Part shown: one piece after another, positions 3,862 to 45,607 of the stretch
Numbering within the stretch: position 1 is the first letter of the stretch
Layout: every line of letters begins with the position of its first letter
Virus record (IMG/VR): IMGVR_UViG_3300030037_000006
Location: 1 to 64,000 of that record
Reading direction: 5' to 3' (one strand)
Source of the DNA: a virus
DNA: 64,000 nt
The notes under the pieces: generated by a model
Seen by the model: only the letters and a program-made list of their open reading frames with translations
The model's database searches: none
Told to the model about the DNA's origin: nothing
Made by a program: the position numbers and the translations under genes

Positions 3862-4345
3862 CTTCGTAACGTTTTCTCTCTAGGATTTCTTCTAGAGAGA
3901 TTCCTTTATCAAAGATTCTGATGTTAGTACTATCATGATAGTGTGGCATTCTGGTTTTAGTTGTTTTATCTATCTCATATTTATCAAACAATAATGTTTG
4001 GACACCAAGTGTAGATGCAAAGTATTTGCTAGATACTTTAACACGCTCAGCCACAGCTTGTATCTGACTATCGGATAAGCTTCCAAATTCTCTCATTACT
4101 ATCTTGCATCGTATACGATTATCTAATAGCTTAAAGAACAATGACTTCTTTGATTGAAGTTGTTCTGTTCTGAAGCCTGTATAGTTGTTGAACTCTATCC
4201 ACTTACCTATGTATCCAAGAGATCTAAGCTTACAGAATTGATTGTTTGATATAAATTTACTTCCATACTTATTAGGAAACTTTTTAGACTCGATTTTAAC
4301 TCTGCCTAAGTTGTCTAGATTAACGAACTTAAACATTAGCGCCAC
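3848..4345 (-). CDS. hypothetical protein, C-terminal -MYS motif
   Basis: 165-aa ORF coupled to the upstream gene; ends EAMYS. Confidence 0.65.
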   Translation of the reverse strand: MALMFKFVNLDNLGRVKIESKKFPNKYGSKFISNNQFCKLRSLGYIGKWIEFNNYTGFRTEQLQSKKSLFFKLLDNRIRCKIVMREFGSLSDSQIQAVAERVKVSSKYFASTLGVQTLLFDKYEIDKTTKTRMPHYHDSTNIRIFDKGISLEEILERKRYEAMYS

Positions 4346-4560
4346 AGAATTACATATTCACCAAAGTAAGAATCAAATACTTCTACGGCGTTTTCATAAT
4401 CAGAAGACATCATAAGTGCACAAATACCTTTTGCATCCAAACCAAGTTGTCTAGCTAGTTGAGTAGCATGGCCCATCAATACAAATACATTTCCTTCAGG
4501 ACCAGTGAGATCAATTTCAATTTTACGATCTTCAATATCTGATTTATGTTTGATAGCCAT
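4336..4560 (-). CDS. small conserved-looking phage protein
   Basis: IDLTGPEGNVFVLMG...SSDYE motif, recognised from many phage and bacterial small proteins. Confidence 0.65.
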   Translation of the reverse strand: MAIKHKSDIEDRKIEIDLTGPEGNVFVLMGHATQLARQLGLDAKGICALMMSSDYENAVEVFDSYFGEYVILWR

Positions 4561-11638: not shown

Positions 11639-12691
11639 CTAGTATTCGTCTTCACCATAAATTTCAGGTGTCCACTCAATATTATCTTCCAAGAAATCTC
11701 TAAGATCAGAAGCAAACTCGCTATCTAGATAAATCTCCATTTGATCTCCGCGTCCAATTGGAGTGTCAATTTCAACTTCAATTGCGTTAGGTTCATCTTC
11801 ATCAAACTCTTTAATGAATCCTACTGTAATTGTTAGCTGTTCACCTGATTCTAATTGGTCTGCTGGAATAGTGTAGATATTATCTACTTGATAACTTAGA
11901 TCATCACCAGGAGTATGGCTTGTCATGTTCTCAAATCTAAATCTAGTTTGAGTTTCACCACCTACATAGTCACTTATTGCATCGGACACTTCTGCAAACT
12001 TATCCCAGGTTTCTTTAAGACCTTCTTTAGTTTGAGCTGCATGTTTAACAGCTTCATCACTGATTTCTTCAACAGCATTAGGATCTTCTTTAATCTGAAG
12101 AGCATTACCGTAAATATCTTTCATTCCACCGACAACACTTTCATCACTAAGATTAAATTCTTGAACTTTAGGTCCACGACTTTGAGCGACTTCAATAGCT
12201 GAATTGTATTTAGTTAAGAATAACTCGATAGCATCTTCATCAGCAAGTTCAATGCGGTATTTGTATTCAGTTACATCTTCTTTTACAAAAACTGTCTTAA
12301 CTTTATCTAAATCTTTTTTAATAGATTCTACCTTTTTATCAAAGGCTTTATTTGTCTTAACTGATTTTAAACTTTCTACTTTAGTTGTTATAGCAGATAA
12401 ATTCAATGATAATTTCTCATCAGGTTTCCTTGATTCTTTAAGAAGATTATCACCTTTAAGAAGTTCAGTAAACTTAGCTAAGTTTTCTTCTGTTCTAAAG
12501 CAGAAGTTAAAAAGTATTTTTACTATGTAATCTTCTTCATCAAAGTTAGCTCGAGCAATTTCAAGAGCTTTATCTCCATTAGTACCAGACACTTGAACTG
12601 AATGTTTAAAGTCTTTCATCGGGTGCTTAGTGTATTCTTCTTTCATAATTTGAGTCTTAGTTGACTCATATAGTTTCATAAATTTTGACAT
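11639..12691 (-). CDS. putative internal head protein (MSKFxKLYES leader family)
   Basis: Starts MSKFMKLYESTKTQIMKE; several internal (L/F/I)xE sites (LKES, VKED, IKED, LKET). Confidence 0.7.
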   Translation of the reverse strand: MSKFMKLYESTKTQIMKEEYTKHPMKDFKHSVQVSGTNGDKALEIARANFDEEDYIVKILFNFCFRTEENLAKFTELLKGDNLLKESRKPDEKLSLNLSAITTKVESLKSVKTNKAFDKKVESIKKDLDKVKTVFVKEDVTEYKYRIELADEDAIELFLTKYNSAIEVAQSRGPKVQEFNLSDESVVGGMKDIYGNALQIKEDPNAVEEISDEAVKHAAQTKEGLKETWDKFAEVSDAISDYVGGETQTRFRFENMTSHTPGDDLSYQVDNIYTIPADQLESGEQLTITVGFIKEFDEDEPNAIEVEIDTPIGRGDQMEIYLDSEFASDLRDFLEDNIEWTPEIYGEDEY

Positions 12692-12692
12692 G

Positions 12693-13244
12693 TTATTTAG
12701 CTGCTACTGAAGATTTATCATCTACTGCATAAACGACTCTGCCTCCACCACTGTTAGACCATTGCAAATCCATATTACTAAGTAATACGTATCTCTTAGC
12801 AAATTCCTCATCGTCAGTATTATACAAATGCCAACCATGCTCAGCGTGCTTATTTTCATCTGTCATATTACCAGAGAAGCCGCCCATCTTATATATTGCG
12901 AATTGGCCATCTTTAGACAATTTTGATTTATCGATATCATATATGTTACCGTCAAACCAATCTGAATCTAAGAATTCGTTTGCGTCTGCTTCGCTGGTAA
13001 ATTCTAAAGGGCGTCCAAACTTGAAAGCTACTTCAGCAGGTTGAAACACGTGTGTCAATTTAGGACCATTATGCAGATGAGCAAAACGTCCAGGTTTTAC
13101 TGGCGCAATAAAGTAACCGCGCTCTCGCCAGGTCTTACCGTTTTCGTTATAATCAGGTGCTAGTGCTGAAACTTCATCAGAGTATGTTACGTTCTCGTTT
13201 AGAGCTTGTTTAGTTGACTCGTATAATTTCATAAATTTTGACAT
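12693..13244 (-). CDS. putative internal head protein (MSKFxKLYES leader family)
   Basis: Starts MSKFMKLYESTKQALNE; late box GATAAATA at 13276-13283. Confidence 0.7.
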   Translation of the reverse strand: MSKFMKLYESTKQALNENVTYSDEVSALAPDYNENGKTWRERGYFIAPVKPGRFAHLHNGPKLTHVFQPAEVAFKFGRPLEFTSEADANEFLDSDWFDGNIYDIDKSKLSKDGQFAIYKMGGFSGNMTDENKHAEHGWHLYNTDDEEFAKRYVLLSNMDLQWSNSGGGRVVYAVDDKSSVAAK

Positions 13245-13274
13245 TATTTCTCTTTTGTTTAAATCGTATTTTAT

Positions 13275-13715
13275 CTATTTATCTAGAATAGTGAGATTTA
13301 CTTGATCGAATAGCTTCTCTATATCTTCTAAAGTTTGTACGCTATCTGGTACATCGATTTCAACAATTTTGAAACCTTTATCTATTAAGTCACCTACGTT
13401 TAAACCAAGTTGGCCATGTTGAGCAAATTGATACTTACCGTTGACATAATTATAGCGCTCTCTAAGTTCAACTCTTTCTAAATCAGTGTAGTTGTTATAG
13501 CCGTAAGAACCAATCTTACCTATGAATTGAATATCATCATCTAGATGAGACTCATCATTTCCTAAAATCCATTGACCAGTTTGTGGTAAACGACTTTCTT
13601 CCGTAGGAGAATATTTATTAAGATAGTCATCCTTTTCTAGGTATTGTAAATGTTCAGAACTCTCGGATACTAGCCGAGCTTTAGTTGATTCGTATAGTTT
13701 TTTAAATTTTGACAT
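13275..13715 (-). CDS. putative internal head protein (MSKFxKLYES leader family)
   Basis: Starts MSKFKKLYESTKARLVSE; AAGGA RBS. Confidence 0.7.
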   Translation of the reverse strand: MSKFKKLYESTKARLVSESSEHLQYLEKDDYLNKYSPTEESRLPQTGQWILGNDESHLDDDIQFIGKIGSYGYNNYTDLERVELRERYNYVNGKYQFAQHGQLGLNVGDLIDKGFKIVEIDVPDSVQTLEDIEKLFDQVNLTILDK

Positions 13716-13726
13716 GTTATTCCTTA

Positions 13727-14185
13727 TTAGTGCATAGCCATGGGAACATGACCAGTAGGGTTGTAGTTATCATAATGAGCAAGAACAGCTTGAGTTGCAC
13801 CTTCTAAATCATTAGGCATTGCCATCTTATTCTCTTTACCTTTATTGAATGCTTTGCTATTAGATCTTAATTCTTTAGTAGCCCATAGTTCACGGGATCC
13901 CATTGACAAATTTCCTTTATTCTCAGAATAAGTATACACTAATCTTTTACCTTCATCAAATTTGAATTCAACTGAATCAGGATTTTCAACAAAGTCATAG
14001 AAGTTTCCAGCAGACTTTACTGTTAGATACATATCAAATAATCCATCAATGTTTTTTACAAACTCACCAAGCTTGGCGGGTTTATTAGATTTCATAGATT
14101 TATATACTTCATAATCGCGGGGTGCTTCTTCTTCTTTGAAGAATTGAGCTTTAGTTGATTCATACAACTTATTAAATTTTGACAT
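13727..14185 (-). CDS. putative internal head protein (MSKFxKLYES leader family)
   Basis: Starts MSKFNKLYESTKAQFFKE; late box at 14214-14221. Confidence 0.7.
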   Translation of the reverse strand: MSKFNKLYESTKAQFFKEEEAPRDYEVYKSMKSNKPAKLGEFVKNIDGLFDMYLTVKSAGNFYDFVENPDSVEFKFDEGKRLVYTYSENKGNLSMGSRELWATKELRSNSKAFNKGKENKMAMPNDLEGATQAVLAHYDNYNPTGHVPMAMH

Positions 14186-14212
14186 AATGTTATGTGTCTC
14201 TTTGTATTTTAT

Positions 14213-14530
14213 CTATTTATCTAAGGAGACGTTTCTCAATTGTAAAATTTCGTCCAATTGGTACTGATCAGGTTCTGCTGAAATAGGAAGAATTAAGTCG
14301 TCTCCTTCCATGTATGATCCAGCATCCCAATACATATCAGTAAATATCTGGTCTCGTTCTAGTATGTTAAATATTTTAGCATAGGCGCCTCTAAATTTAT
14401 TCTGAGTGCCACTTTTAGATACAGTATCAGGGTTCTTAATATTTTTAATGCGAAAAGTTATACCTGTATTAGCGTCAGATTCAGTGAATTGAGCTTTAGT
14501 TGATTCATACAACTTTATAAATTTTGACAT
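14213..14530 (-). CDS. putative internal head protein (MSKFxKLYES leader family)
   Basis: Starts MSKFIKLYESTKAQFTE; late box at 14554-14561. Confidence 0.7.
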   Translation of the reverse strand: MSKFIKLYESTKAQFTESDANTGITFRIKNIKNPDTVSKSGTQNKFRGAYAKIFNILERDQIFTDMYWDAGSYMEGDDLILPISAEPDQYQLDEILQLRNVSLDK

Positions 14531-17122: not shown

Positions 17123-17791
17123 TTAAAATTTCATTTTTCTTCCTTTAATCCAACCTTTACTTAAATAATCTTCTAGATCAGTTTTATGTATAGATTTACT
17201 AACCTTTTCTTCAAGGCTATGAATCCAACATTTACCGAATTGAGAATTACCAGATCCTTTTTGAGCCTTCGATGTTACTAAGCCAATCTTTCTCTTAGTT
17301 TCATCTGTATGCTGTTTACCTAACCAGAAAGTATTTCCCTTAAGACCTTCAGATATATTTAAGCACCATTGCTCGTATTTACCTGATTCTTTAAGAACGT
17401 TTACTAATTCTGCTCCACATAAAAGATTCTGTTTTCCTCTGCCATCTTGACCATTTAATACATTACCATTATCGTCATAATATAAATTACCACCTGCTTC
17501 CATAGACTCATGCCAATTGGCACCTTGTCCACCTACACAGCGATTATAAGTATCAGATCGACATACAAAATCAAAGTCTACTAACTTAGCTTCTAATAAA
17601 TCCATTTCATCTGAATCGTTACATTCGAATAAAATTTCTCTCTCAAAGAACTTAGTTCCGAATAATTTAATATCTTCACGAAGTTTAGTACCAGAACCTA
17701 GATAACCATCATCTAGCTTTTCTGTTTTATGCTGACCTATATAGATCTTGTTGTTAATTGTATTGGTTGTTTTATAAATGATGTAGTGCAT
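17123..17791 (-). CDS. free-standing GIY-YIG (Seg-like) homing endonuclease
   Basis: YIIYKTTNTINNKIYIGQH...YLGSG...FEREIL; NUMOD3-like GKQHTDETKRKI; lies beside tRNAs, as T4 segB does. Confidence 0.88.
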   Translation of the reverse strand: MHYIIYKTTNTINNKIYIGQHKTEKLDDGYLGSGTKLREDIKLFGTKFFEREILFECNDSDEMDLLEAKLVDFDFVCRSDTYNRCVGGQGANWHESMEAGGNLYYDDNGNVLNGQDGRGKQNLLCGAELVNVLKESGKYEQWCLNISEGLKGNTFWLGKQHTDETKRKIGLVTSKAQKGSGNSQFGKCWIHSLEEKVSKSIHKTDLEDYLSKGWIKGRKMKF

Positions 17792-18185: not shown

Positions 18186-19025
18186 CTATTGGTTCTTCAC
18201 TATATTCTTTAGTTTAGAAGTATGTACGCCTGCTAATTCTACACCATCTTTGAAATCGATAGTATAATGATCTTCTATAGATTCACCATCTCTATAAGTT
18301 CCACCACGGATTGTAGCTTCCTTTTCATCATAATGAGATAATGAGTTCGAACCAGATCTTAGGTCAGCATGATCAAAATTATACTTTCTATAATTATCTA
18401 AATCATTTTTGTCATATATGAAGATTGCGGTATCACCCTTAGATATATCAAATTCAGAATCAGTACTTTCATTTAATGATAGGTTTAGTTCAAAGAATTC
18501 ATCTACATCAGCAGCATTAATATAATCACCGTGACCTACGAATAGAACTCCATTAGAACTGAAATCTTTGATTCGTTTCTTTCTTCCTTCCTTGACCCAT
18601 AGTTTTTCATCACCGAAGAATGCTTTCTTGATAGTGATAGGATTGTATTGAAGCTTCTCTTTAGTAAGATCATGCTTAGCAACTAATGAATCTCCAATGG
18701 AATAAGATGCTTTAATCTTATCAATAAGTTCATCTGACTTTGCATGTTTAGCATCTGCTTCATCCTGCTTTTCTTGCTTCTGAGTTTCAACACTATCAAA
18801 TTTGTCAAGTAATGTTTTACTAATAGTGAAACTTCCATCACCTAAAACAGTTACAACATAATGATCATCATTTATTTCTGTAATTCTAAATTCAGAAGTT
18901 AAATAAGTCATATTAGGATGGTAACCTTTATAAGGACTAATCTCTCTTCGGTCTTTACTATATCCGTATCCTTGTGAACGGTGGATATCGAAATGATCTC
19001 CTACTTTATGTCCTTCAGTATACAC
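18186..19025 (-). CDS. hypothetical late protein
   Basis: GTG start overlaps the TAG of the upstream gene, GGAGA RBS; internal LNES site. Confidence 0.7.
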   Translation of the reverse strand: MYTEGHKVGDHFDIHRSQGYGYSKDRREISPYKGYHPNMTYLTSEFRITEINDDHYVVTVLGDGSFTISKTLLDKFDSVETQKQEKQDEADAKHAKSDELIDKIKASYSIGDSLVAKHDLTKEKLQYNPITIKKAFFGDEKLWVKEGRKKRIKDFSSNGVLFVGHGDYINAADVDEFFELNLSLNESTDSEFDISKGDTAIFIYDKNDLDNYRKYNFDHADLRSGSNSLSHYDEKEATIRGGTYRDGESIEDHYTIDFKDGVELAGVHTSKLKNIVKNQ

Positions 19026-19714
19026 TAGTATCTCCGTGTTTTATCTTGTGCAGCTTTTTCTTCAAAAGTTTCTTCGTCTTCTTCTAATACTTCAGACTCA
19101 CCAATTACAAGAGGCTCTATTCTAAAGTTAACTACTTCTTGACCTTCTACTTTTACACAAGTAACACTCATGTTTTCAAGCAAAGTTTCTAGGTAGTGTT
19201 TAATGTTATTGGCAATTGCTTCTACATCATCGTCTTCGGCAGTGAGAGTAAACGCAAGAATTCTTTTAGCATCTCTTCCAGTATCTCCTGGATGTTTATC
19301 TGTACCAACAGTTTCAGATTTAATATCACCAACTTCTACATCGCCATAAAACTCTACACCATCTTCAATGTATTTTTCTAGGTCTGCTTTAAGAGTGTCT
19401 TCAAATTGATAAGTTTCGTTTTCAATATCTTCAAATACTGTCTGTACTTCTGGAAGAATTTCTTTAATTGCATTTTTAAAATGTGTATAAAATTTGTCTC
19501 TGAATGAATGAGGTACATTGTTTTTATCAAGTTTTGCAGTATACTTAGGTAAGAGATCATTAATTTTATTCTCTAAATGCTCACCTAAGTTCAGAACATA
19601 CTTCAGATATTGCTCATCAGTTGCTTCAGTTAAAATAGCTTCCATTATTGGAGTTGGAGTTTTAGTATCTTTCTTGACACTTTCATAAATTGAGTTAAAT
19701 TTACTAGGCTTCAT
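19025..19714 (-). CDS. putative internal head protein (leader variant)
   Basis: Starts MKPSKFNSIYESVK...IMEAILTE; late box at 19746-19753. Confidence 0.65.
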   Translation of the reverse strand: MKPSKFNSIYESVKKDTKTPTPIMEAILTEATDEQYLKYVLNLGEHLENKINDLLPKYTAKLDKNNVPHSFRDKFYTHFKNAIKEILPEVQTVFEDIENETYQFEDTLKADLEKYIEDGVEFYGDVEVGDIKSETVGTDKHPGDTGRDAKRILAFTLTAEDDDVEAIANNIKHYLETLLENMSVTCVKVEGQEVVNFRIEPLVIGESEVLEEDEETFEEKAAQDKTRRY

Positions 19715-21982: not shown

Positions 21983-22402
21983 CTATTTCATTAAAAAGTA
22001 GTCATAAATTTCTACCCAATCATTATGTGGATCGAATCCAGCCTTATCATCAAGTATAACATTCATATAAAACTTTGAATCAAAGTCAGCAGTTTCAGTA
22101 GTAGGACATTCAGGATTGCTATTAAAATAGTCAAACTTAATTCCTTTATCTTCAAGCAGTGCTTTATGTGGTGACAGATAATCAGGATTAGATGAAGTCC
22201 ATAGAATTAATTTAATATCTACTCTATTAGATAATAGTATAAGAGCATCTTCACAAAAGGGATACATATCAAGTGTATCATTAGTCTTATAAGTAGCAGG
22301 TGATATCGTGTCATGTAGATCTATTGCTATATAAAGGGTATCCCAACCACGCTTATCTTTCTTTGCGTATTCTCTATCTAAAAGTTGTGTAAACGTTAGC
22401 AT
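21983..22402 (-). CDS. HAD-superfamily phosphatase-like protein
   Basis: IAIDLHDTI (motif I), LILWTS (II), K and LDDKAGF (III/IV). Confidence 0.8.
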   Translation of the reverse strand: MLTFTQLLDREYAKKDKRGWDTLYIAIDLHDTISPATYKTNDTLDMYPFCEDALILLSNRVDIKLILWTSSNPDYLSPHKALLEDKGIKFDYFNSNPECPTTETADFDSKFYMNVILDDKAGFDPHNDWVEIYDYFLMK

Positions 22403-22487: not shown

Positions 22488-23843
22488 TTACATTTCGTTA
22501 GTATATACTTCGTTAACACACTCAGTTACAATACCGCTTAAAATAGTAATGATATCATCTGGATCAAATCCATCAGAAATTAAATCAGGTGTCATAGATT
22601 TAACTATTTCTTTGAAATCTTTTAACGAATTAATATTAACTAAACCTTCGAATCTATCTAATGGAGATAAGCTTGACTCAGTAACAGTATTTCTATTAGC
22701 TTCAATTGTATCATTAAGTCTTCCAACCAAGTCATTGATTTGAACCAATGCACTAATATCTGAGCTATATTCTAGATCCCATTTAGAAACATCATCTTTG
22801 CTAATCAGATCTTTGAGTTTAGATTGAGCTTGGCGAGCGTTATTAATATATCGACCCATGTTTTCGATTGCGGCACTATAGGTAGGTACGGCGTCTTCTT
22901 TAATTGCAGTATTAACTATTTCAAGTAAAGATGCAATATTAAGATCAATTTCTTTAATGTACTGAGCATACTGATCTTTATCATTGTTATTCTTCATTGA
23001 TGCAATAGTATCACGATATCTTGCACGGTTTGAATTAGCTACATTGTAATCTTCAAGATGATATGCAAGTGATCTGAAACCAGCACGTTCTTGTCTTAAG
23101 TCACGTTGTTCTGTACCAAGTTCATCACGTAATTCATTACCGATGCATAGAATATAATCAGCTTCTTGAAGCATTGCTTTAATAGAAATATTTTTTAATC
23201 CACCTCTGCTATTTTTATGAATATAACTTGATACTTCAGTTACTTTACCTGTATCAGGAGTGAATCTAGCAATACCTACCATTTCTTTATCATTATAAGA
23301 TGCGCCATAAGTAAGCTCTGCTCTGTTATGCTGTTTTTTCCATCCTTCTTTTTCATATTTATCAGCAGAAGCTTGTTCTCTTTCTTGTTCATCTGCATAT
23401 CTTTCAGTGTTATCTTTAACGAAAATCATAGTACTATAATTTTTCTTAAGCTCTCTGAATTCTTTAGGATTAGCTAATAGGCTATCAACTTCAACACGTT
23501 TAATTTGATCATCTGTAAGTTCAGATGGCATAGGCAAAGCACCAGTAGAATAGTTGCGGCCTTCATTATCAAAGTATGATTTGAAATCTTTAATAGATCT
23601 TTCAACTGTTCGTAATCTATCTCTGAATCTACTTAAGTCACCCGTATATTCTAAATCTTTAATAGATCTATCAGGATGTTTTACTTGCATTCTTTCGAGT
23701 TCAGCAGCTTGACCTTTCTTAAGAGCATCACGTTTAGTATACAGAGATTTAATTAATCCTGTGAGTTCAGATGATGCGAACTTTTCGTTTAATTCGAGCT
23801 TCTTGGTAGACTCATACAGAGCCATGAATTTTGTTCTTTTCAT
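22488..23843 (-). CDS. putative internal head protein (leader variant)
   Basis: Starts MKRTKFMALYESTKKLELNE. Confidence 0.7.
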   Translation of the reverse strand: MKRTKFMALYESTKKLELNEKFASSELTGLIKSLYTKRDALKKGQAAELERMQVKHPDRSIKDLEYTGDLSRFRDRLRTVERSIKDFKSYFDNEGRNYSTGALPMPSELTDDQIKRVEVDSLLANPKEFRELKKNYSTMIFVKDNTERYADEQEREQASADKYEKEGWKKQHNRAELTYGASYNDKEMVGIARFTPDTGKVTEVSSYIHKNSRGGLKNISIKAMLQEADYILCIGNELRDELGTEQRDLRQERAGFRSLAYHLEDYNVANSNRARYRDTIASMKNNNDKDQYAQYIKEIDLNIASLLEIVNTAIKEDAVPTYSAAIENMGRYINNARQAQSKLKDLISKDDVSKWDLEYSSDISALVQINDLVGRLNDTIEANRNTVTESSLSPLDRFEGLVNINSLKDFKEIVKSMTPDLISDGFDPDDIITILSGIVTECVNEVYTNEM

Positions 23844-23856
23844 TGTTTATATATTC

Positions 23857-24423
23857 CTATAAGTTTAATTTAAATTGTTTGTATGGAGTGTCTACTACTG
23901 AGCCTTTAAGTGATACTGCGAATTCATCAGATGATCCTTCAGTATTATCAAGTTCTGTCTCTTCTATATAATTCTTACCTGTGCCAGGTTTAAGATAAGC
24001 TAATGTTATGTGGCCATTGTATTCATCATAAATATTAGAGTTATCTAATTCAGAAAGTTTATCACATAATGCTTGCATATCATCTGATTCAATGCCTAGT
24101 TTTAAAACATCATAATCATCATTCTCAAACAAAGATAAACCTACAATAGTAAATTCAAATTCATTCTTTTCTAGTTCAGCCATCTTATCTTTGATAACAT
24201 CTAAGTCATCTGTGTGTATTCCATACAATGCCGTGATATGAGATTCAGTTTCTAATCCAGGAGCCCATCCATCTTTCGAAAGATCTTCTTCTTTGATTTT
24301 AGATTGAATATCTTCAATTGATTTAAGAGTATCTTCGTCATTAATAACAAGCATTATGCAACTTGAATCTCTCAATTCTACTTTATTTTTAATAGACTCA
24401 TATAGCTTCATAAACTTAGACAT
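23857..24423 (-). CDS. 2H phosphoesterase (Acb1/T4 57B-like) with MSKFxKLYES leader
   Basis: Two HxT motifs (SHITALYG; EYNGHITLAY); late box at 24509-24516. Confidence 0.8.
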   Translation of the reverse strand: MSKFMKLYESIKNKVELRDSSCIMLVINDEDTLKSIEDIQSKIKEEDLSKDGWAPGLETESHITALYGIHTDDLDVIKDKMAELEKNEFEFTIVGLSLFENDDYDVLKLGIESDDMQALCDKLSELDNSNIYDEYNGHITLAYLKPGTGKNYIEETELDNTEGSSDEFAVSLKGSVVDTPYKQFKLNL

Positions 24424-24539
24424 TTAAAGCCTCTACTTCTTTTACACATGTTACAGTTACAGCGGAATATATTATCACGCATTCTCATTTTCCATAAATT
24501 GTTTATTTTATTTATCTTTTAATTGTACATTAACCAAAC

Positions 24540-25521: not shown

Positions 25522-28146
25522 TTATAGAGCAGTACCAGAAGGTTCTGCAATAAAGAAAAGCCTGATGAAGTCAATTGCTTTCGCTGGAACTACGAAGAAT
25601 TGAGCTACCAATTCGTTTGCGTCTCTAATTTCAGGACCATTGTTATCTTCATCTGCAACAATCTTAAATGCTTCAATACCACCAGCTGATTTAACTGATT
25701 CAAACAAAGGAGATACGAGGTTAATAAATCTACGACGTGTTGCTTCGTTATTAAGTTCGCCTACAAACCAAAGAGCAGTTTTATAAGTTTCACGTTCAAG
25801 ACGGAGGAACAATCTACGTACGTTAACTCTATCAAAAGCAGAAGGTTTAATCTGAGTTGTTTTCTGACCTTCAATAACATGTCCACCGAATGAATAGGTT
25901 TTAGCATAGTTAATTGAGCGAGTATAAAGAGCATCACCATCAGCTGTTTTAGGCTGGAAAGCAAGATCATTGATACCACGAATAACACCACGATTGAGTT
26001 GTGATGGAGCGCTCCAGAAATTAAACTGAATATCAGTACGAGTATAAATACCAGCTACTGAACAACTTGGTGGCATCCAGAATTCTAATCCTGAATATTG
26101 GTCATACTTCTTTTCCCAGTTAGCATACTGAGCCGCATAAGAACTGTTTAGATTTGAAATGAATCTTAGCTGAGGTGTAATTGAATTAGAGAATGTATTG
26201 CTTGGAGCTGTATCTCTAAGGACTTTCTCCATACCTCTAATAGCAAGGTTACGAGGACTATCAACAATTGCCATACAATCTTTACGGACTGTTGAACAGA
26301 AGTTAATATTCTTATCAGAAACTGCTTTCCATACTGATACTTTATCAGGAGAGTTAATAGCAATATTATCATCTACATCAAACGCAGGGTCAAACAATAG
26401 TGGAGTAGTTGGATCAACGTCAGGAGCATCATTAATAAACTGAGCAATTGTAGAAAGTCCAGCATCACAAACAATATCAACTTGTTTATCAAGGATAGAA
26501 TCAAGCTTACTTTGTATAATGTCCATATCAGTTAACATTTCAACTGATGAAATTAACTTAGCAGCTTCAGCTTCAGAGAATCCAACAAGTTGTGCACCTC
26601 TAGATTGTGAATCCGGATCTTCCATGTATTCAACGTTAGCAACTGTTTCTACGATATCTTCAGTAGAAGTGATAGTAAAAGCAACACCAGGAGTTGCAGA
26701 AGTAATTGTAATTACATCTGATACAATGCCAACAGTTACAGCAGGATCAATAATGAGAGCACCTAAACTTGCAGCAGTAGCATCATTATCAACACCAACA
26801 GAAGTATAAGAAAATTCTGTACCATTAATAGTAACAGTTACAACATCCGATGCGATCGCATCTACTGTAACAGTATTAACTTGAGCCACAGCATCAACTT
26901 CATTTGCTTGAGATCCAGCAGGAAGGTTGGTAGTTTCATCTGAACCAGTACCAGTAAACACACCGTCTTTAACAACGAATGATTCGTTTTCACCGATAGT
27001 ATCAATTTGGTAAGGAGCTAAATCACCAGCATTAGTAATTACGTGATACATTGCAATTGTATTTGAGTTAGAGTTAACAATCAAAGGAAGATATTCTAAT
27101 TGACCAGTAGCAGAGTTTCTTTCATCAGAACATAAAGAACCGAAGTAAGCTTCTTGAATACTGATGTTAATTTTACCGTTGTTATTAGGATCTACTGTAG
27201 CTTCACAAAGAATCAATGCTGTGTAGTTTTTATACTCAGTATTAATTGAATCACCTGTAGAGTTGAACTCGATAGTTTCGAATTGCTGAGCAATATCGCG
27301 TGATACAGAGTCATTACCAACTGTAGCAGAAAGAGCTTTAGTAAAGTTATGAGATGCATCGGCAATAGTTTGAATGTTGCCATCAACAGATACCCACTTT
27401 GCGGTAGGCGGAAGAACTAATCCATCAACAACGTTAAGGAATTCTCCATCAGTAGATGATACTGAACGCTGAGCTACGAGAGCATCTAGCATATCAACCA
27501 TTACGATGAATTTGCCGCCACGTTCTTTGGGACCAGTAAGTGAACCTTTAGATTTATCTACGAGAATGAAATTTGTTCCGGAAGGAATGTCTTCATCTTC
27601 AGTTGTAGAAGGGAGACCATTGAGATCAGAGAGAATTGCTTCTCCTCTAATAGCGAGGTTATCAACTTTAGCCAATGACATATTAGATACTTCACCGAAA
27701 GTTCCTACATAATAATCAGTAATTGGTTTTTCTGGTTGAGCAGCGATAGAGTTAAGTGTTTCTGATTTGCCACCGAATCCTTCAGGATCATTAGCAATCA
27801 ATTCAACATTAGTTTCAGTGTTTGCTGGTGACGTGAATGAAAGAGGGATGTAAGAAAAGTGTTGATCTTTAACATTCTGATATGGAAGTTTGGCTGCCCA
27901 TACTTTACCTTTGTTGTCAATTACTTCTTTACAAGCATAATGGAAATAACGTTCAGCTTCGTTTGAAGGAATGCCGTAATTATTTAAAAGATCTTGGTTA
28001 TCAGCTATTAGCAAAGGTTTGTATGGAACACCATTCGTGGTATATCCCTGAACAAGTGTGTTAGTACCAGTAATAGAAGGTGCGCGCTGAGTGTTATCGA
28101 TCTCAGTAAATTCTACTCCGGGACTCTGGATAGTGCGTATAGGCAT
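25522..28146 (-). CDS. tail sheath protein (T4 gp18-like)
   Basis: SPGVEFTEID start; RKDCMAIVD, WSAP..LNRG, GQKT, SAFDRVNVRRLFL; late box at 28184-28191. Confidence 0.95.
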   Translation of the reverse strand: MPIRTIQSPGVEFTEIDNTQRAPSITGTNTLVQGYTTNGVPYKPLLIADNQDLLNNYGIPSNEAERYFHYACKEVIDNKGKVWAAKLPYQNVKDQHFSYIPLSFTSPANTETNVELIANDPEGFGGKSETLNSIAAQPEKPITDYYVGTFGEVSNMSLAKVDNLAIRGEAILSDLNGLPSTTEDEDIPSGTNFILVDKSKGSLTGPKERGGKFIVMVDMLDALVAQRSVSSTDGEFLNVVDGLVLPPTAKWVSVDGNIQTIADASHNFTKALSATVGNDSVSRDIAQQFETIEFNSTGDSINTEYKNYTALILCEATVDPNNNGKINISIQEAYFGSLCSDERNSATGQLEYLPLIVNSNSNTIAMYHVITNAGDLAPYQIDTIGENESFVVKDGVFTGTGSDETTNLPAGSQANEVDAVAQVNTVTVDAIASDVVTVTINGTEFSYTSVGVDNDATAASLGALIIDPAVTVGIVSDVITITSATPGVAFTITSTEDIVETVANVEYMEDPDSQSRGAQLVGFSEAEAAKLISSVEMLTDMDIIQSKLDSILDKQVDIVCDAGLSTIAQFINDAPDVDPTTPLLFDPAFDVDDNIAINSPDKVSVWKAVSDKNINFCSTVRKDCMAIVDSPRNLAIRGMEKVLRDTAPSNTFSNSITPQLRFISNLNSSYAAQYANWEKKYDQYSGLEFWMPPSCSVAGIYTRTDIQFNFWSAPSQLNRGVIRGINDLAFQPKTADGDALYTRSINYAKTYSFGGHVIEGQKTTQIKPSAFDRVNVRRLFLRLERETYKTALWFVGELNNEATRRRFINLVSPLFESVKSAGGIEAFKIVADEDNNGPEIRDANELVAQFFVVPAKAIDFIRLFFIAEPSGTAL

Positions 28147-28255
28147 TATATATTTTCCTTGGTTTGATTAATTTTATTTTATATATTTATCAAAAAAACA
28201 GAAGAACTGCTCAAGTTTAATAAATAGTACATATAACAAACTACAGGAAAATAAA

Positions 28256-34242: not shown

Positions 34243-34668
34243 ATGAACATTGGAATTATCGGTACTCGTAAAAGAGACAGCCAAGAAGATTATGATCATA
34301 CATTATCAGCATTCAACTCTATTATTAAGCAATACATTCATGTAGGACAAATAAAAGGAGTAGAAGATATTAAAATTGTTTCAGGTGGATGTCCTAAAGG
34401 AGGAGATCGATTTGCTGAATTAATTCACACTGAACTTGATCTTAAACCTGAACAATTAATAATTCATCTCCCTGAAAAGCCCCCAATTGGATCACCTAAA
34501 TACATGTATGTTAGATCTATGCATGATCGTAATGATCTCATTGCTAGAGATTCTGATGTTTTGCTAGCAGTTACTGATCATGGATCGAAAAAAGGTGGAA
34601 CTCTTTATACTATTAAGAAGTTTAAAGATGTTACACCAATGGGTACACTTAAATGCTATCAGATTTAA
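34243..34668 (+). CDS. SLOG-superfamily (DprA/YspA-like) protein
   Basis: GIIGTR, VSGGCPKGGD, RNDLIA..SD.LLA, GGTLYT. Confidence 0.8.
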   Translation: MNIGIIGTRKRDSQEDYDHTLSAFNSIIKQYIHVGQIKGVEDIKIVSGGCPKGGDRFAELIHTELDLKPEQLIIHLPEKPPIGSPKYMYVRSMHDRNDLIARDSDVLLAVTDHGSKKGGTLYTIKKFKDVTPMGTLKCYQI

Positions 34669-35363
34669 TTAGCAGATATTTTAAATAGTGTTAAAGCATG
34701 AGTAGAGTTTGGATTTAGAGAAGCTATAAGTCTCTCTGTCTCATAAATACTAGCACCTGTACTTATCACATCATCAAGAATAAGAACGTTTTTATCTTCG
34801 ATTATTGCTAAGAGTTTATCTGAATCTTCTTCTGAAAATTCTAAGAATCCTCTGAATAACAAAGCGAATTGTTTAAAGACGTTCTTCATTTTGATCTCAT
34901 TAAAGCCTTTCTTACGTAATGACTTTATAGATTCGTCACCACCTTTTTGTACACTAGCTTTATGCTCATCTTTTATAACATCTAAGTTCATGTGTATGCT
35001 ATCTAAGTTAGATTTTTTAATATCATTGAAAATAATAACATCGTCTGGTACGATAGACATCAAATCTTTTAAAACTCTAGAATCACTTCCAGGTACTGCT
35101 AGTACATCGATATCATTTTCTTTAATGTAATCAAGCAAATACTCTTTACTTGTCTCTAACATATCTAAATATTCATCCTCAGTTATATTAGGGTCTGATT
35201 TCTTTATTTCTTTGATGTAAGCGATGCCTTCCTTTCCCATAGAGAAAACTGACTTAATTGCTAGACCTGAACCTGAATTCTTATCAGATTTCTTGTACAT
35301 TCCGTTCTTTTTCTTTTTAAATCTAGTACTTTCTGCTAAATATAAAGCTAAAAATTTACTCAT
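34665..35363 (-). CDS. type I phosphoribosyltransferase-domain protein with leader variant
   Basis: PRPP loop VLILDDVISTGAS; starts MSKFLALYLAES; late box at 35395-35402. Confidence 0.8.
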   Translation of the reverse strand: MSKFLALYLAESTRFKKKKNGMYKKSDKNSGSGLAIKSVFSMGKEGIAYIKEIKKSDPNITEDEYLDMLETSKEYLLDYIKENDIDVLAVPGSDSRVLKDLMSIVPDDVIIFNDIKKSNLDSIHMNLDVIKDEHKASVQKGGDESIKSLRKKGFNEIKMKNVFKQFALLFRGFLEFSEEDSDKLLAIIEDKNVLILDDVISTGASIYETERLIASLNPNSTHALTLFKISAN

Positions 35364-35394
35364 ATTGTTCTACTGTTGAAATTGCTGTATGATG

Positions 35395-35419
35395 TATTTA
35401 TCTTTACTATTGATAAATA
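35395..35419. promoter_or_regulatory. divergent pair of late promoter boxes (GATAAATA), representative of a family
   Basis: GATAAATA also precedes gp3 (37170), portal (42645), protease (44701), core/scaffold (45410), MCP (46821), 55654 and 59801 on plus, and 13276, 14214, 14554, 17820, 18153, 19746, 24509, 28184, 30637, 34164 and 42610 on minus; analogous to T4 TATAAATA. Confidence 0.85.
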
Positions 35420-35448
35420 TGATTATAACAAAAACAGAGAGATTAAAT

Positions 35449-37239
35449 ATGCCAGTAAAATCAACAGGTATAGTTAGAGCATCTGATAATATTGACTATT
35501 TCGAAGACACGAGCTATAATGGGAACGAAGATCACAAACGCGGAGTAGTAAAAGTTAATGTCAACGTTAACGATTTCACATACTTTGCTCAAGAGATTAT
35601 GCGATGTAGAAATGACATTCAATATTTTGCTGATAACTATTTTACAATTTTGGATGGTACCACTGGACACAAAGGTATCATTAATATGTACGACAAGCAG
35701 AAGGAAATGCTTGAATTAGTAGATACTCACGACAGAGTAATTTGCGCAGTAGGAAGACAGTCAGGTAAATCGACAGTATATACGATTGATATTGTACATA
35801 AGCTATGCTTCTTTGAAGATAAGATGCTTGGAATTATGGCGCAGAACGCAGCTGTAGCATGTGATATTTTAGATCGTGTTAAGATGGCTATTGCATATCT
35901 ACCTAAATGGATGAAGCCTGGTATCAAAAAGATGTCAGGAAATAAACTCGTAGTTTCAACTGGCGGTGAATGTATCGCTCGCCCTGCTACTTTAGCTGGT
36001 GTTCGTGGATTAAGATGCCAATACTTATATGTGGATGAATTAGCGTTTATTGCAAGAAAACATGAGAATGAAATTTGGAAAACTGTTTATCCGGTTGTCA
36101 CTTCATTTACTGAAAATAAAATCATAGGTGTAAGTACACCAAACGGAATTGGTAATCTTTTCCATAAGTTCTATTCAAGTGGAATGACAAATCAAGCAAG
36201 AGTCCCACATCGTTGGACTTCATATACTTATAACTGGACCGATGTACCAGGAAGAGATGAAGAATGGCGCCAAAATACTATTGCTACTATGTGTGAAGGC
36301 GATGAAGAAGCTTTCGAACAAGAATTTGAATGTTCATTCTTAGGTGGAGGAACATCTTTACTAGGACTTAAGTTCATTGATAGAAAGATTGCTGAGCTTG
36401 ATGCCCGTATAGCCAATGGCAAAATTGATTACGATAGATATATAGAAATTGCTGGAAATAGAATTCATCAATATTTCGATCCTCTACCTAATAGATGCTA
36501 TGTTTTGTCATCAGATATAGGTGAAGGATCCGGTAATGACAGTACAGTAATTGACGTGATTGATATTACAAATCCAATGATGCCTATGCAAGTGGCTCAT
36601 ATAGCAGATCCAAACTTTCCATTACATACATTGGCATTTACTATTGTGAAGCTAGCAGTTCTATATAACTGTGCAGTAATAATGCCAGAGAATAATGGAG
36701 TAGGTAAAGGAGTTTGTAATGATATCAAACAGATTTATGAGTATCCTTATATTGCTAAGATAGGATCTAAAATGCCGGGCATCTGTAGTTCTAATTCAAT
36801 CAAGAATGAAGCATGCTCTTTCTTTAGAATGATAATGGAAACTATTAAGATAGAACTGATATTGCACACCAAGACCTTCTATGATGAAATGTGTTCATTC
36901 CAGAGACAAGATTTAAACACAGGTCATACATACAAATGTACAGGATCTCATGATGATAATGTAATGTCAATTATATGGGCAATGTATATTCTGAAAGAAT
37001 CAAACTTAAATAGATTCTTTGATTATTCTGCTAAGTTCGTAAGCCTAATTGAATTCCCTACTCAATTAAAACAGTTTTATTCAGATGCTGAGATTAAACA
37101 AGAGCAAGATTACTATAACTCTATACTTGAACGGAACGCTACTTCTATTGGCTTTACTGCCACAGATGAGATAAATACACTAAATAATAAAGAACATGAT
37201 GACATTGACTATGTATTCGGATTTTTCAGCAGCAACTAG
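35449..37239 (+). CDS. terL: terminase large subunit (T4 gp17-like)
   Basis: Walker A GRQSGKST, Walker B YVDE, STPNG, EQEFEC, nuclease DIGEG...D, HDDNVM; start placed downstream of the late box. Confidence 0.95.
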   Translation: MPVKSTGIVRASDNIDYFEDTSYNGNEDHKRGVVKVNVNVNDFTYFAQEIMRCRNDIQYFADNYFTILDGTTGHKGIINMYDKQKEMLELVDTHDRVICAVGRQSGKSTVYTIDIVHKLCFFEDKMLGIMAQNAAVACDILDRVKMAIAYLPKWMKPGIKKMSGNKLVVSTGGECIARPATLAGVRGLRCQYLYVDELAFIARKHENEIWKTVYPVVTSFTENKIIGVSTPNGIGNLFHKFYSSGMTNQARVPHRWTSYTYNWTDVPGRDEEWRQNTIATMCEGDEEAFEQEFECSFLGGGTSLLGLKFIDRKIAELDARIANGKIDYDRYIEIAGNRIHQYFDPLPNRCYVLSSDIGEGSGNDSTVIDVIDITNPMMPMQVAHIADPNFPLHTLAFTIVKLAVLYNCAVIMPENNGVGKGVCNDIKQIYEYPYIAKIGSKMPGICSSNSIKNEACSFFRMIMETIKIELILHTKTFYDEMCSFQRQDLNTGHTYKCTGSHDDNVMSIIWAMYILKESNLNRFFDYSAKFVSLIEFPTQLKQFYSDAEIKQEQDYYNSILERNATSIGFTATDEINTLNNKEHDDIDYVFGFFSSN

Positions 37240-42698: not shown

Positions 42699-44702
42699 AT
42701 GGCAACTACATCAGATAAAAGGATTATCAACTCTCGCATTATTGTAGACAATTCAACTAATAACGAGTTAGAGTCTTCGTCCGACATATCAAGTGCAAAC
42801 AAAAACATTACAGTTTTTGATGACGTTAATAAATTTGTAGCCCATAACATTACGGCTTCAACAAACGAACATAGTGTAATTTTCTCATCTAACGATACTA
42901 AAAACGAAAGATGGAATGGACAAGGTGGAAATAGTGGAATGCACGGAGCTATTGAAAGTTCTTATTTCCATGATGTTTATAGTTCAGTATCAAATAATAA
43001 ACTTCAAAAGCTTTCATATTATAGACAGATGGTTTCACAGGCGGAATTGGCTGATGCTGTTGATGAGATTGCTGAGTCATGTATCAATGAAAATGATAAA
43101 GGACAAGTAGTAGAAATTGAATTCAATCGTGATAGTTTCACTAATCTTTCTCCTAATGCCGAAACTGAAATAAACAAACATTTTAATTCGTTCATAAACC
43201 TTTATAACTTTAAACAGAATGGATTCTATACTTTCAGAGAATTTATTACTGATGGTGAAGCTACATGGGAAAACATTGTTGATAAAGACAAACTACATCT
43301 TGGTATTATTGATATTAAGAAAATTAAACCAGAAAGTTATGAATATCTTATTGATAATTATTTCAATCACTTAGGTATATTAATTAATGCTCAGCTTACT
43401 AAATTCCAAAAGCCAGAAGACATGGATAAAAGCGGTACTAAGTATGCAGCTATAGACGGTAACAATACATTTGGTATCCAGAAAGGACAAGTAAATGCTA
43501 TCACTACAGCAATGAAAACGTCTGGTAGCATGTACAAAGCAACTAACGATGAAGCATCGATTATACCAATGCCTATGGAACAAGTTACCCATGCTGTATC
43601 AGGAACGTACTCAGATGATCGCTTGACAATCATTCCTATTCTTGATAGAGCAAGACGAGCTTATAATCAACTTGTAATTCTAGAAGATGCTTCTATTATA
43701 TATCGTTTAGTACGTGCTCCTGAGAGATTAGTATTTAATATCGATGTTGGTGATGCAGCTCCTGCTCGTGCCAATCAACAAGTTAAACAGTTAGCTCAAC
43801 AATATCAAAGCAAGAAAGTATATGATACTTCAACAGGTGGAATAGCTAATCAATATGATGCTCACCAAATGCTCGAATCTATGTTCTTTCCTAAAACATC
43901 TAATGGTACCGGTGGTACTACTGTTGATTCAATTGGTGGATCTTCTACTAACTTTGGTTCAATGGATGATATTAAATACTTCCAACAGAAGTTATTTGCA
44001 TCTTTGAAAATTCCTTACAATAGATTCTCAGCAGAGAATGATTCTGAAGCTCGTACAAATGTAGATTCAATTACTTATGCAGAATATCGTTTTGCTAAAT
44101 CTGTAATAAGACTTCAGCAATCAATGGCATCTGCTATTAAGAAAACTTTTGTAACTCATCTTAAATTCGTAGGTCTTTGGGATAGTGCATTACTTAGAGA
44201 AGATGCATTTGATATATCATTTGTAGTTCCATCTATGTATGAATACTATACAACACAGAAGATGTTAACTGAGAAGTTTAAGATTTACAATGATCTTTCT
44301 TCCAATGCTGATATTTCTAAAAGCTATATTATGAAGAACGTTCTTAAATGGAGTGAAGCTGATATCGATCAGAATTATGCTGACCTCGAGAAAGAAAAGA
44401 TTCGTGAGAAAACAATGGAACTGAAAATAAATTCTATCAGTAAAGTAGTTAAAGAGTATGATAAAGCTAGATCACCTTCTGATGAAGAATCTGATGAAGA
44501 AGGATCAGAGAATACTAACTCAGATAACTTTGAATTTGATGATTCGTTTGATGATGATCCTAGTGAGTTCGATGATAATGATTTCGATGATCTTGATGAT
44601 AACTCTGGCGCTGATACTGCAGATACAGGTGATCTTGATACTGCAGGTGACATAGATGATATAGAATTTGACATACCTGATAGTACACCAGACGAATTAT
44701 GA
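42699..44702 (+). CDS. portal protein (T4 gp20-like) with acidic C-terminal tail
   Basis: YRQM...AVDEI; NQLVILEDASIIYRLVRAPERLVFNIDVG; DDIKYFQQKLFASLKIP. Confidence 0.95.
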   Translation: MATTSDKRIINSRIIVDNSTNNELESSSDISSANKNITVFDDVNKFVAHNITASTNEHSVIFSSNDTKNERWNGQGGNSGMHGAIESSYFHDVYSSVSNNKLQKLSYYRQMVSQAELADAVDEIAESCINENDKGQVVEIEFNRDSFTNLSPNAETEINKHFNSFINLYNFKQNGFYTFREFITDGEATWENIVDKDKLHLGIIDIKKIKPESYEYLIDNYFNHLGILINAQLTKFQKPEDMDKSGTKYAAIDGNNTFGIQKGQVNAITTAMKTSGSMYKATNDEASIIPMPMEQVTHAVSGTYSDDRLTIIPILDRARRAYNQLVILEDASIIYRLVRAPERLVFNIDVGDAAPARANQQVKQLAQQYQSKKVYDTSTGGIANQYDAHQMLESMFFPKTSNGTGGTTVDSIGGSSTNFGSMDDIKYFQQKLFASLKIPYNRFSAENDSEARTNVDSITYAEYRFAKSVIRLQQSMASAIKKTFVTHLKFVGLWDSALLREDAFDISFVVPSMYEYYTTQKMLTEKFKIYNDLSSNADISKSYIMKNVLKWSEADIDQNYADLEKEKIREKTMELKINSISKVVKEYDKARSPSDEESDEEGSENTNSDNFEFDDSFDDDPSEFDDNDFDDLDDNSGADTADTGDLDTAGDIDDIEFDIPDSTPDEL

Positions 44703-44743: not shown

Positions 44744-45409
44744 ATGAAATTAATTTGTGAATACAAAGTTAATTCAGATGATATTACAGTCATAGAAGAG
44801 CAACAGAATGCCTCTTCTGAAAAGGTCCTCAAAATAAGAGGACCCTACGTAGTAACTGAAGAAGAGAACGAGAATGGCAGAGTATATGACAGACAAGATA
44901 TGGTCTCTGCTATCAACGAATATACTGAACAATTTATCAATACATCCAGATCAGTTGGAGAACTTGAACACCCTGACAGTATTGAAATTTCTTATGACCG
45001 TGCATGTCACCTGATTACTAGCCTTAAGCAAGAAGATAACATTTGGATTGGCGAAAGTAAAGTATTAGTTGGAACACCATGTGGAGACATTCTTAAAGGT
45101 CTCTTGATGAACGGTGTTAATGTTGGTATCTCTACACGTGGAGTAGGTGATTTGGATAATGCTGGTAACGTAACAAACTTCAAGTTTATTACTGCTGACA
45201 TTGTTTCTAATCCTTCTGCAGGTAATCATGGTGCTTGGTGCCAAGGAATATTTGAATCAAAGAACTTTATGTTAGACTCTCATGGATCTATTATCGAATC
45301 TGTTTATAACAAATTGGAATCAGATTTAGCTACATTGCCTAAAAATAGTGCTGCTAAGAACGCTCATATAGCAGATTCATTGGCAACATTCATTCGAAGC
45401 CTAAAGTAA
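44744..45409 (+). CDS. prohead protease (T4 gp21-like)
   Basis: NENGRVY, GELEHP, GISTRGVG, DIVSNPS. Confidence 0.95.
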   Translation: MKLICEYKVNSDDITVIEEQQNASSEKVLKIRGPYVVTEEENENGRVYDRQDMVSAINEYTEQFINTSRSVGELEHPDSIEISYDRACHLITSLKQEDNIWIGESKVLVGTPCGDILKGLLMNGVNVGISTRGVGDLDNAGNVTNFKFITADIVSNPSAGNHGAWCQGIFESKNFMLDSHGSIIESVYNKLESDLATLPKNSAAKNAHIADSLATFIRSLK

Positions 45410-45448: not shown

Positions 45449-45607
45449 ATGACGCCAGAGCATAAATCTAATATTCAAATGTTCATTAAAGAATGTGCGA
45501 ATAAGAACACACCTCGTGCTAAAGAGCTTTTAGATGTTATACTCGAGTCTAAGGTTAAAGACCGAGTAGATAAAACTATCAAATTGAATCCTTCGGAGAA
45601 ACATTAA
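45449..45607 (+). CDS. small prohead core protein (52 aa), not in ORF track
   Basis: MTPEHKSNIQMFIKEC...ILESKVKDRV; between late box 45410 and the scaffold, stop overlaps the scaffold ATG. Confidence 0.6.
   Translation: MTPEHKSNIQMFIKECANKNTPRAKELLDVILESKVKDRVDKTIKLNPSEKH

Follow-up and report, generated by a model that had tools for sequence, protein, structure and literature searches.

In bacteriophage T4, an N-terminal capsid-targeting sequence brings the internal proteins into the prohead's scaffolding core, and the prohead protease gp21 cuts after the glutamate of an I/L-x-E motif, removing the propeptides that internal proteins, Alt, gp23 and others carry (PMC3012670, PMC5694885, PMC12991175). 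Two of these proteins, IPI* and Alt, are injected and serve in counter-defence or host takeover (PMC3012670, PMC5694885). Acb1 (T4 57B; Erwinia phage FBB1, 7T26/7T27) and PDE-9 (Burkholderia phage BCSR5, 9Q2G/9Q2Y) are phage enzymes of the two-histidine (2H) phosphoesterase fold that destroy cyclic-oligonucleotide immune signals (PMC9117128; 10.1101/2025.08.21.671373). Finally, the 2H domains of the 'polyvalent' proteins occur fused to MuF and portal domains and are not linked to RNA ligases, and Iyer, Burroughs, Anand, de Souza and Aravind (2017) proposed that such virion-delivered domains act as RNases or as degraders of host-defence nucleotides (PMC5512222, section 20). Here, we describe a 188-residue open reading frame (ORF) at positions 23857-24423, minus strand, of the first 64 kb (hereafter the window) of the 90.8-kb IMG/VR virus record IMGVR_UViG_3300030037_000006. 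Its product has the form of a precursor of a 2H phosphoesterase and starts with a short leader that also heads other genes of this phage. We propose that it is a late-made, capsid-loaded and injected phosphodiesterase that hydrolyses cyclic-oligonucleotide immune signals, a proposal that we judge to be about evenly balanced between right and wrong. A virion-delivered 2H enzyme is, as a general idea, already known and was partly anticipated by the 2017 work; what is new here is the route, which would use a removable T4-type propeptide, and the co-variation of the leader across genomes. Our literature search found no paper that joins Acb1 with a capsid-targeting sequence or with internal proteins.

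The protein starts with MSKFMKLYESIK. The two HxT motifs that the first-pass annotation of this DNA had named, SHITALYG and EYNGHITLAY, were confirmed by direct reading, and the gene has the following features:

24509-24516, minus strand: GATAAATA, a late-promoter-like motif, 86 nt 5' of the 2H ATG
24430-24433, minus strand: GAGG Shine-Dalgarno sequence, read directly, 6 nt 5' of the ATG
24397-24423, minus strand: leader codons 1-9, MSKFMKLYE, a predicted capsid-targeting propeptide with a predicted cut between E9 and S10, after L7-Y8-E9
24232-24240, minus strand: first catalytic motif, H62-I-T64 (SHITALYG), invariant in both family alignments and aligned to T4 Acb1 H44-S-T46
24004-24012, minus strand: second catalytic motif, H138-I-T140 (EYNGHITLAY), inside Y-x-E-Y-x-G-H-I-T-L-A-Y and likewise invariant in both family alignments

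From its sequence and predicted structure, the protein is an intact 2H phosphoesterase that looks active. It passes the cut-off of the Pfam 2H family PF13563 (28 bits against 27) and matches phrog_755 of PHROGs at 3.5e-12. An AlphaFold2 model built with 44 homologues has a mean predicted local distance difference test score of 94 and consists of a helix at residues 3-12 followed by a beta-alpha fold from residue 21. The second motif aligns to F107...Y110..H113-I-T115..Y118 of T4 Acb1, and the block [FY]-x-[DE]-Y-x-[PG]-H-x-T-x-[AS]-Y is common to this protein, Acb1 and PDE-9. The three are also alike in their fold, their two HxT motifs and their aromatic residues at two positions: in a joint sequence alignment, F99 corresponds to W74 and Y132 to F107, which in Acb1 are nucleobase-stacking residues (PMC9117128). 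They differ in that overall identity is only about 19-23% and in that the present protein carries a cleavable-looking leader common to other genes of its genome.

Profile comparisons place the sequence closer to Acb1-type enzymes than to the LigT/ThpR enzymes. Searched against 177,635 PDB sequences, the family profile retrieved only Acb1-type chains, namely 9q2g (5e-6), 9q2y (5e-4) and 7t26 (8.5e-3), the first of which is PDE-9, an enzyme that cleaves 3'3'-cyclic GMP-AMP (10.1101/2025.08.21.671373). In hhalign, a 13-member Acb1 alignment was matched with 94.3% probability (E 1e-7) over 81 columns that take in the two catalytic motifs, whereas a 13-member alignment of E. coli-type ThpR gave 3.4% over 15 columns; the reference alignments have little depth, that of ThpR even less than that of Acb1. 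The comparison with the single T4 Acb1 sequence was weak (61.8% over 35 columns). Among the relatives, 43 of 44 match the Pfam Acb1 family PF23474 at E<0.01, the best of them at 5.4e-9.

Structure prediction and fold comparison, to which the first-pass annotation had looked for a distinction between Acb1 and LigT, gave no separation, since all 2H families tie at Z 12-14 over 134-163 aligned residues. The scores were 14.0 for 1iuh of T. thermophilus, 13.6 for 5h7e of D. radiodurans, 13.4 for E. coli LigT/ThpR (5LDM), 13 for Usb1, 12.5 for Acb1 of phage FBB1 (134 of 137 residues, 22% identity) and 12.4 for PDE-9 of Burkholderia phage BCSR5, a phage for which our literature search found no paper under that name. 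These comparisons bear on an alternative in which packaging and injection are the same and the target is RNA. The enzyme would then prepare RNA for repair, as a LigT/ThpR-like enzyme, by opening the 2',3'-cyclic phosphate ends that host anticodon nucleases or toxin RNases create, or would act on host RNA as a Usb1-like RNase. The ThpR/LigT structures (5LDM, 1IUH, 5H7E) resemble the protein in fold and size, match it as well as or better than Acb1 does (Z 13-14 over residues 16-188), and cover C-terminal strands that Acb1 lacks. The Pfam LigT_PEase family, PF02834, is marginally passed by the protein as a whole (23.9, cut-off 23.3) and by no single stretch of it; two large relatives (G003 and G004) encode RNA ligases; and the RNase option is one of the two that Iyer et al. 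listed for such a 2H domain. On the other side, profile-level similarity to ThpR is nil, as the 15-column match indicates, and the second motif reads H-x-T-x-A-Y as in Acb1 and not H-x-T-L-L-R as in ThpR, which is moreover a leaderless cellular enzyme. In the relatives, some 190 kb separate the RNA ligase genes from the 2H gene; in the 90.8 kb of this phage no such gene was found, and Iyer et al. met with no case in which RNA ligases were linked to this 2H type. We regard an RNA target as unlikely.

The wider family of the enzyme points to the virion. At E<=1e-3 the family profile matched 5,940 cluster representatives, and at <=1e-30 it matched 1,465. The enzyme is a member of a very large, Acb1-related phage clade that also matches the 2H domain of the polyvalent virion proteins. 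Among the best 150 profile hits, the same domain was found fused in five arrangements: Phage_portal+2H (P0113), 2H+ADPrib_exo_Tox (P0110), ART-PolyVal+2H (P0097), SNF2+LigD+DNA ligase+2H (P0068) and 2H+DUF5661+a polyA-polymerase-type nucleotidyltransferase (P0074), with matches to the fused forms at E 1e-43 to 1e-49. Hits to the family profile reach about 5,000 aa in length. Structure matches in BFVD include a Gordonia phage 'structural protein', a Microbacterium phage 'capsid morphogenesis protein' and a protein of Tenacibaculum phage PTm1. The protein described here belongs to the same sequence family as the polyvalent 2H domains and differs from them in standing alone; its entry into the virion would use a removable leader instead of covalent fusion to a structural or MuF-type protein.

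The 'capsid leader' of the first-pass annotation is borne out as a repeated element: it heads about ten ORFs, ends in L-x-E and occurs in a genome that encodes a gp21-type protease. Nine ORFs of the 90.8-kb record, the 2H gene among them, start with M(S)KFxKLYES(T/I)K or a close variant, and a tenth carries a more distant variant. Besides the 2H gene, the leader-bearing ORFs are:

11639-12691, 12693-13244, 13275-13715, 13727-14185 and 14213-14530 (together 11639-14530), minus strand: array of five leader-bearing ORFs, no family match
19025-19714, minus strand: leader-bearing ORF, MKPSKFNSIYES, no family match
22488-23843, minus strand: 451-aa protein with leader variant MKRTKFMALYES, the next gene downstream of the 2H gene, no family match
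34665-35363, minus strand: tenth ORF, with leader variant MSKFLALYLAE followed by S, and GATAAATA 32 nt upstream
79458-80150 of the record: leader-bearing ORF outside the window

These ORFs encode proteins of 105-451 aa, mostly acidic; five of the genes form a tandem array, and several have their own GATAAATA. Past residue 15 they show no detectable similarity to one another, and Pfam and PHROGs searches of all but 79458-80150 returned no family for any of them other than the 2H protein. Serine follows L-x-E in every copy of the leader. Among the seven closest leaders, 73 codon changes are synonymous and 21 are non-synonymous, the latter only at positions 5 and 11; this ratio argues that the leader peptide is under selection and is not recently copied DNA. 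In the model of the 2H protein, the leader forms the separate helix (residues 3-12) outside the 2H fold, and all structural matches begin at model residue 15-19 except for one poor alignment (root-mean-square deviation 9.5). From these sequence features, the ten or so leader-bearing ORFs are likely to encode capsid cargo. A second cleavage site within the 2H protein was considered and rejected, as the next glutamate, E16, is preceded by K-V and not by L/I-x.

The machinery that such a leader would require is encoded in the same window, within a T4-type head module, listed here together with the tail sheath:

25522-28146: tail sheath
35389-37239: large terminase, of the T4-type head module
42699-44702, plus strand: T4-type portal protein, gp20 family (2e-86)
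44744-45409, plus strand: gp21-type prohead protease of 221 aa (Peptidase_S77 2.7e-15; phrog_207 2.3e-45)
45607-46803, plus strand: acidic scaffold-like protein whose N-terminus, MNIKQQLIALLE, is followed by S, an L-x-E-S-like site
46896-48437, plus strand: gp23-type major capsid protein (1.9e-67), with L-N-E followed by A at residues 58-60

The phage itself is, as far as its gene sequences tell, a distant uncultured member of the T4 assemblage, because its capsid protein shares only about 30% identity with its counterpart in any cultured phage. CheckV estimates the completeness of the record at 33%, and the GC content is 33.5%. An identical 2H protein was found on a second contig of 255.6 kb, so that the genome probably measures at least 250 kb. 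The locus had no megablast match among 50,697 phage records.

Two further genes lie among the tagged genes. A homing endonuclease gene (17123-17791, minus strand; phrog_314 at 6.7e-36), with GATAAATA 29 nt upstream, separates the leader-gene array from the other cargo genes. Just downstream of two tagged genes, a leaderless gene (21983-22402, minus strand) encodes a 139-aa protein that matches phrog_1238 ('phosphoheptose isomerase') at 1.2e-7.

The relatives of the enzyme allow the leader to be followed from genome to genome. Of 104 stand-alone members, 98 have an extension of 8-35 residues ahead of strand 1, and [LIVMF]xE occurs within the extension in 92 of those 98, against 55 +/- 5 (maximum 71) after shuffling; relatives of the query alignment, in which leaders were present, are over-represented in this sample. 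Many of the extensions resemble T4 tags, as in MIFKTFEQFIAE. We then compared leaders within loci, using 55 IMG/VR loci with a homologue and a flank of +/-10 kb at each, and scored a match when at least 6 of 8 residues were identical between the first 16 residues of the 2H protein and the N-terminus of another ORF of the same locus. By this rule, the 2H leader matched the leaders of unrelated neighbours in 18 of the 55 loci, which is a lower bound, and in 69 ORFs altogether; leaders taken from other loci matched in 9 of 275 trials and shuffled leaders in 4 of 275. The leaders vary by lineage, as illustrated by MKHIKLFEEFVTE, MKQRIITLNEFVE and MKRIKLFEEFMNE, yet agree with those of neighbouring genes inside each genome. 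In a complete 256-kb relative with terminal repeats, 16 ORFs start with MKxIKLFExFxxE, of which 12 form one cluster at 188.9-200.3 kb that encloses the 2H gene. This relative and two other large relatives encode a Peptidase_S77 protein (two of the three genomes are at least 97% complete and one is 84% complete). The homologue of Maribacter phage Colly is leaderless and lies among small non-structural genes. Because the leaders match those of local neighbours and the Colly homologue has none, the comparison of sequences indicates that the extension is an add-on that tracks the phage and not the enzyme.

Two observations on these relatives stand apart from the co-variation. The Peptidase_S77 domain of the three large relatives lies inside open frames of 606-689 aa (domain at G003:C1:52970-53311, G004:C1:282172-282525 and G005:C1:190649-190993), much longer than T4 gp21 or the 221-aa protease of the window, and these frames may, by their length and domain content, be protease-scaffold fusions. 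In Maribacter phage Colly_1, the leaderless 2H gene (1-379) lies about 3.6 kb from a gene annotated as 'HAD domain in Swiss Army Knife RNA repair proteins' (4019-4504), a possible RNA-repair context for the untagged form.

The same comparison speaks to an explanation of the extension that involves no packaging, namely that it is a catalytic lid as in PDE-9 (residues 1-15), that the enzyme is cytoplasmic and that its likeness to a capsid tag is a coincidence. PDE-9 is the closest solved relative by sequence, its first 15 residues close on the ligand, accelerating the cleavage of a poor substrate (10.1101/2025.08.21.671373), and nearly all stand-alone members retain an extension of 8-35 aa. A lid would be specific to the enzyme, yet about ten unrelated proteins of this phage start with these nine residues, and in other genomes the 2H leader tracks that of its local neighbours and not that of its orthologues. 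We find this explanation very improbable. The extension could be both propeptide and short lid, since about 11 residues would still precede strand 1 after a cut at E9.

The timing of expression is suggested by the motif GATAAATA, which is one base off the T4 late promoter TATAAATA. The window holds 23 copies of it where 8.7 are expected (2.6-fold), a count reached in 0 of 100 shuffles, and it stands in gene orientation 24-75 nt 5' of the sheath, portal, protease and capsid genes and of most leader-bearing genes (for example at 28184, 42645, 44701, 46821 and 24509, the last being the more distant site of the 2H gene). By analogy with T4, it is probably the late promoter of this phage. The first-pass statement that the 2H gene is under a late promoter therefore holds for the presence of an enriched motif 86 nt upstream, while its function as a promoter is taken from the likeness to TATAAATA.

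Late expression raises the question of whether packaging would be needed at all. The first-pass annotation had argued that the enzyme must be delivered before any phage transcription. [quoted passage not shown] In keeping with this, the protein might be a late cytoplasmic anti-CBASS enzyme that acts mainly in the producing cell, timed to the prohead-protease trigger, with capsid loading minor or incidental, or the leader might serve some other common purpose such as translation initiation or turnover. T4 activates CBASS from 14 min onward through gp21 protease activity, according to a 2026 preprint (PMC12991175), a late promoter motif precedes the 2H gene, and packaging of T4 Acb1 is not reported in PMC9117128. 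We nevertheless consider this improbable, since it leaves unexplained the protease-motif ending of the tag, the fusions to portal proteins and Alt-like ADP-ribosyltransferases elsewhere, and the place of the 2H gene inside arrays of leader-bearing genes.

The arrangement as a whole resembles that of the T4 internal proteins IPI, IPII and IPIII and of Alt. In both phages a short N-terminal tag ending in I/L-x-E heads unrelated proteins, a gene for a gp21-family protease is present, and the tagged genes form arrays with late-type promoters, predicted ones in the present phage. The two sets differ in the leader itself (MSKFMKLYE here, MKTFKEF in T4 ipI), in the cargo, which here includes a 2H enzyme, a family not known among the T4 internal proteins, and in number, tagged genes being more numerous than in T4, with about ten in one third of this genome and 16 in the complete relative. 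In T4 (NC_000866, 7592-8411), acb1 (57B) is directly upstream of, and adjoins, ipI. T4 Acb1 starts with MMEFKDF, resembling MKTFKEF of ipI, and has no I/L-x-E before strand 1; other Tevenvirinae Acb1 proteins have similar starts. The N-terminus of T4 Acb1 may be a vestigial capsid tag, which we offer as a lead only.

Several observations weigh against an injected enzyme that destroys cyclic oligonucleotides. The protein does not reach the Pfam Acb1 cut-off (25.8 bits against 27 for PF23474). Of the Acb1 base-stacking aromatics Y12, W74, F107 and W147, to which E141 is to be added (PMC9117128), the position of Tyr12 is occupied by Ser in this protein, as opposed to Tyr in most of the family, and no counterpart of W147 or E141 was seen in the sequence alignment. 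The C-terminal lid of Acb1 (T4 residues 145-152) is absent, Acb1 chains aligning only as far as residues 174-178, and in the fold comparison LigT-like enzymes rank level with or above Acb1 (1iuh at 14.0 against 12.5). Viral 2H groups differ sharply in substrate, some cutting 0 of 18 messengers (Doherty et al., 10.1101/2025.08.21.671373). As for delivery, 37 of the 55 loci showed no leader sharing within +/-10 kb, the PDE-9 lid offers another known role for such an extension, and the GATAAATA of the 2H gene is farther from its ATG than that of most genes here. Homologues found by tblastn were only distant (huge uncultured phages, Maribacter phages and actinophages), with no close homologue in a cultured T4-type phage.

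These points set limits on the name given to the protein. The first-pass label 'Acb1-like' is upheld by the profile alignment and by the PDB search, which returned only Acb1-type chains, and it fails as a strict assignment: because of the sub-threshold Pfam score, the Ser at the Tyr12 position, the missing C-terminal lid, an insertion of about 25 residues ahead of the first HxT and a family-specific KPGxGKxY loop with extra C-terminal strands at 161-185, we call the protein, from its sequence, Acb1-related and not Acb1. Since the substrates of viral 2H groups vary so sharply, the substrate named here is one that we infer.

For the injected phosphodiesterase that we favour, we infer the following course, from late transcription through packaging, cleavage and injection to the substrate. 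The gene would be transcribed from the T4-like late promoter motif, and its product would be a precursor whose residues 1-9 are the capsid-targeting propeptide of this phage. The leader would take the protein into the scaffolding core of the prohead, where the gp21-type protease would cut after L7-Y8-E9, and the mature enzyme of 179 residues would be kept in the head and enter the next host with the DNA. In the new host, and through an unpackaged late pool in the producing cell, it would hydrolyse immune nucleotide signals, such as the cyclic oligonucleotides of CBASS or type III CRISPR systems, by a two-histidine mechanism.

In a broader form, which we put forward tentatively and hold to be rather less likely than its opposite, the capsid pre-loading of an enzyme that degrades nucleotide signals would be a widespread and unrecognised counter-defence strategy of large T4-type phages, in which one 2H clade with thousands of representatives would repeatedly have been given the propeptide of each phage and so be delivered with the DNA, and the unpackaged Acb1 of T4 may be a descendant that has lost the cleavage site. 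[quoted passage not shown] The cargo of T4-type internal proteins would then extend from inhibitors and ADP-ribosyltransferases to signal-degrading hydrolases. Furthermore, leader co-variation offers a purely genomic route to listing the injected cargo of uncultured large phages, most of which is without known function.

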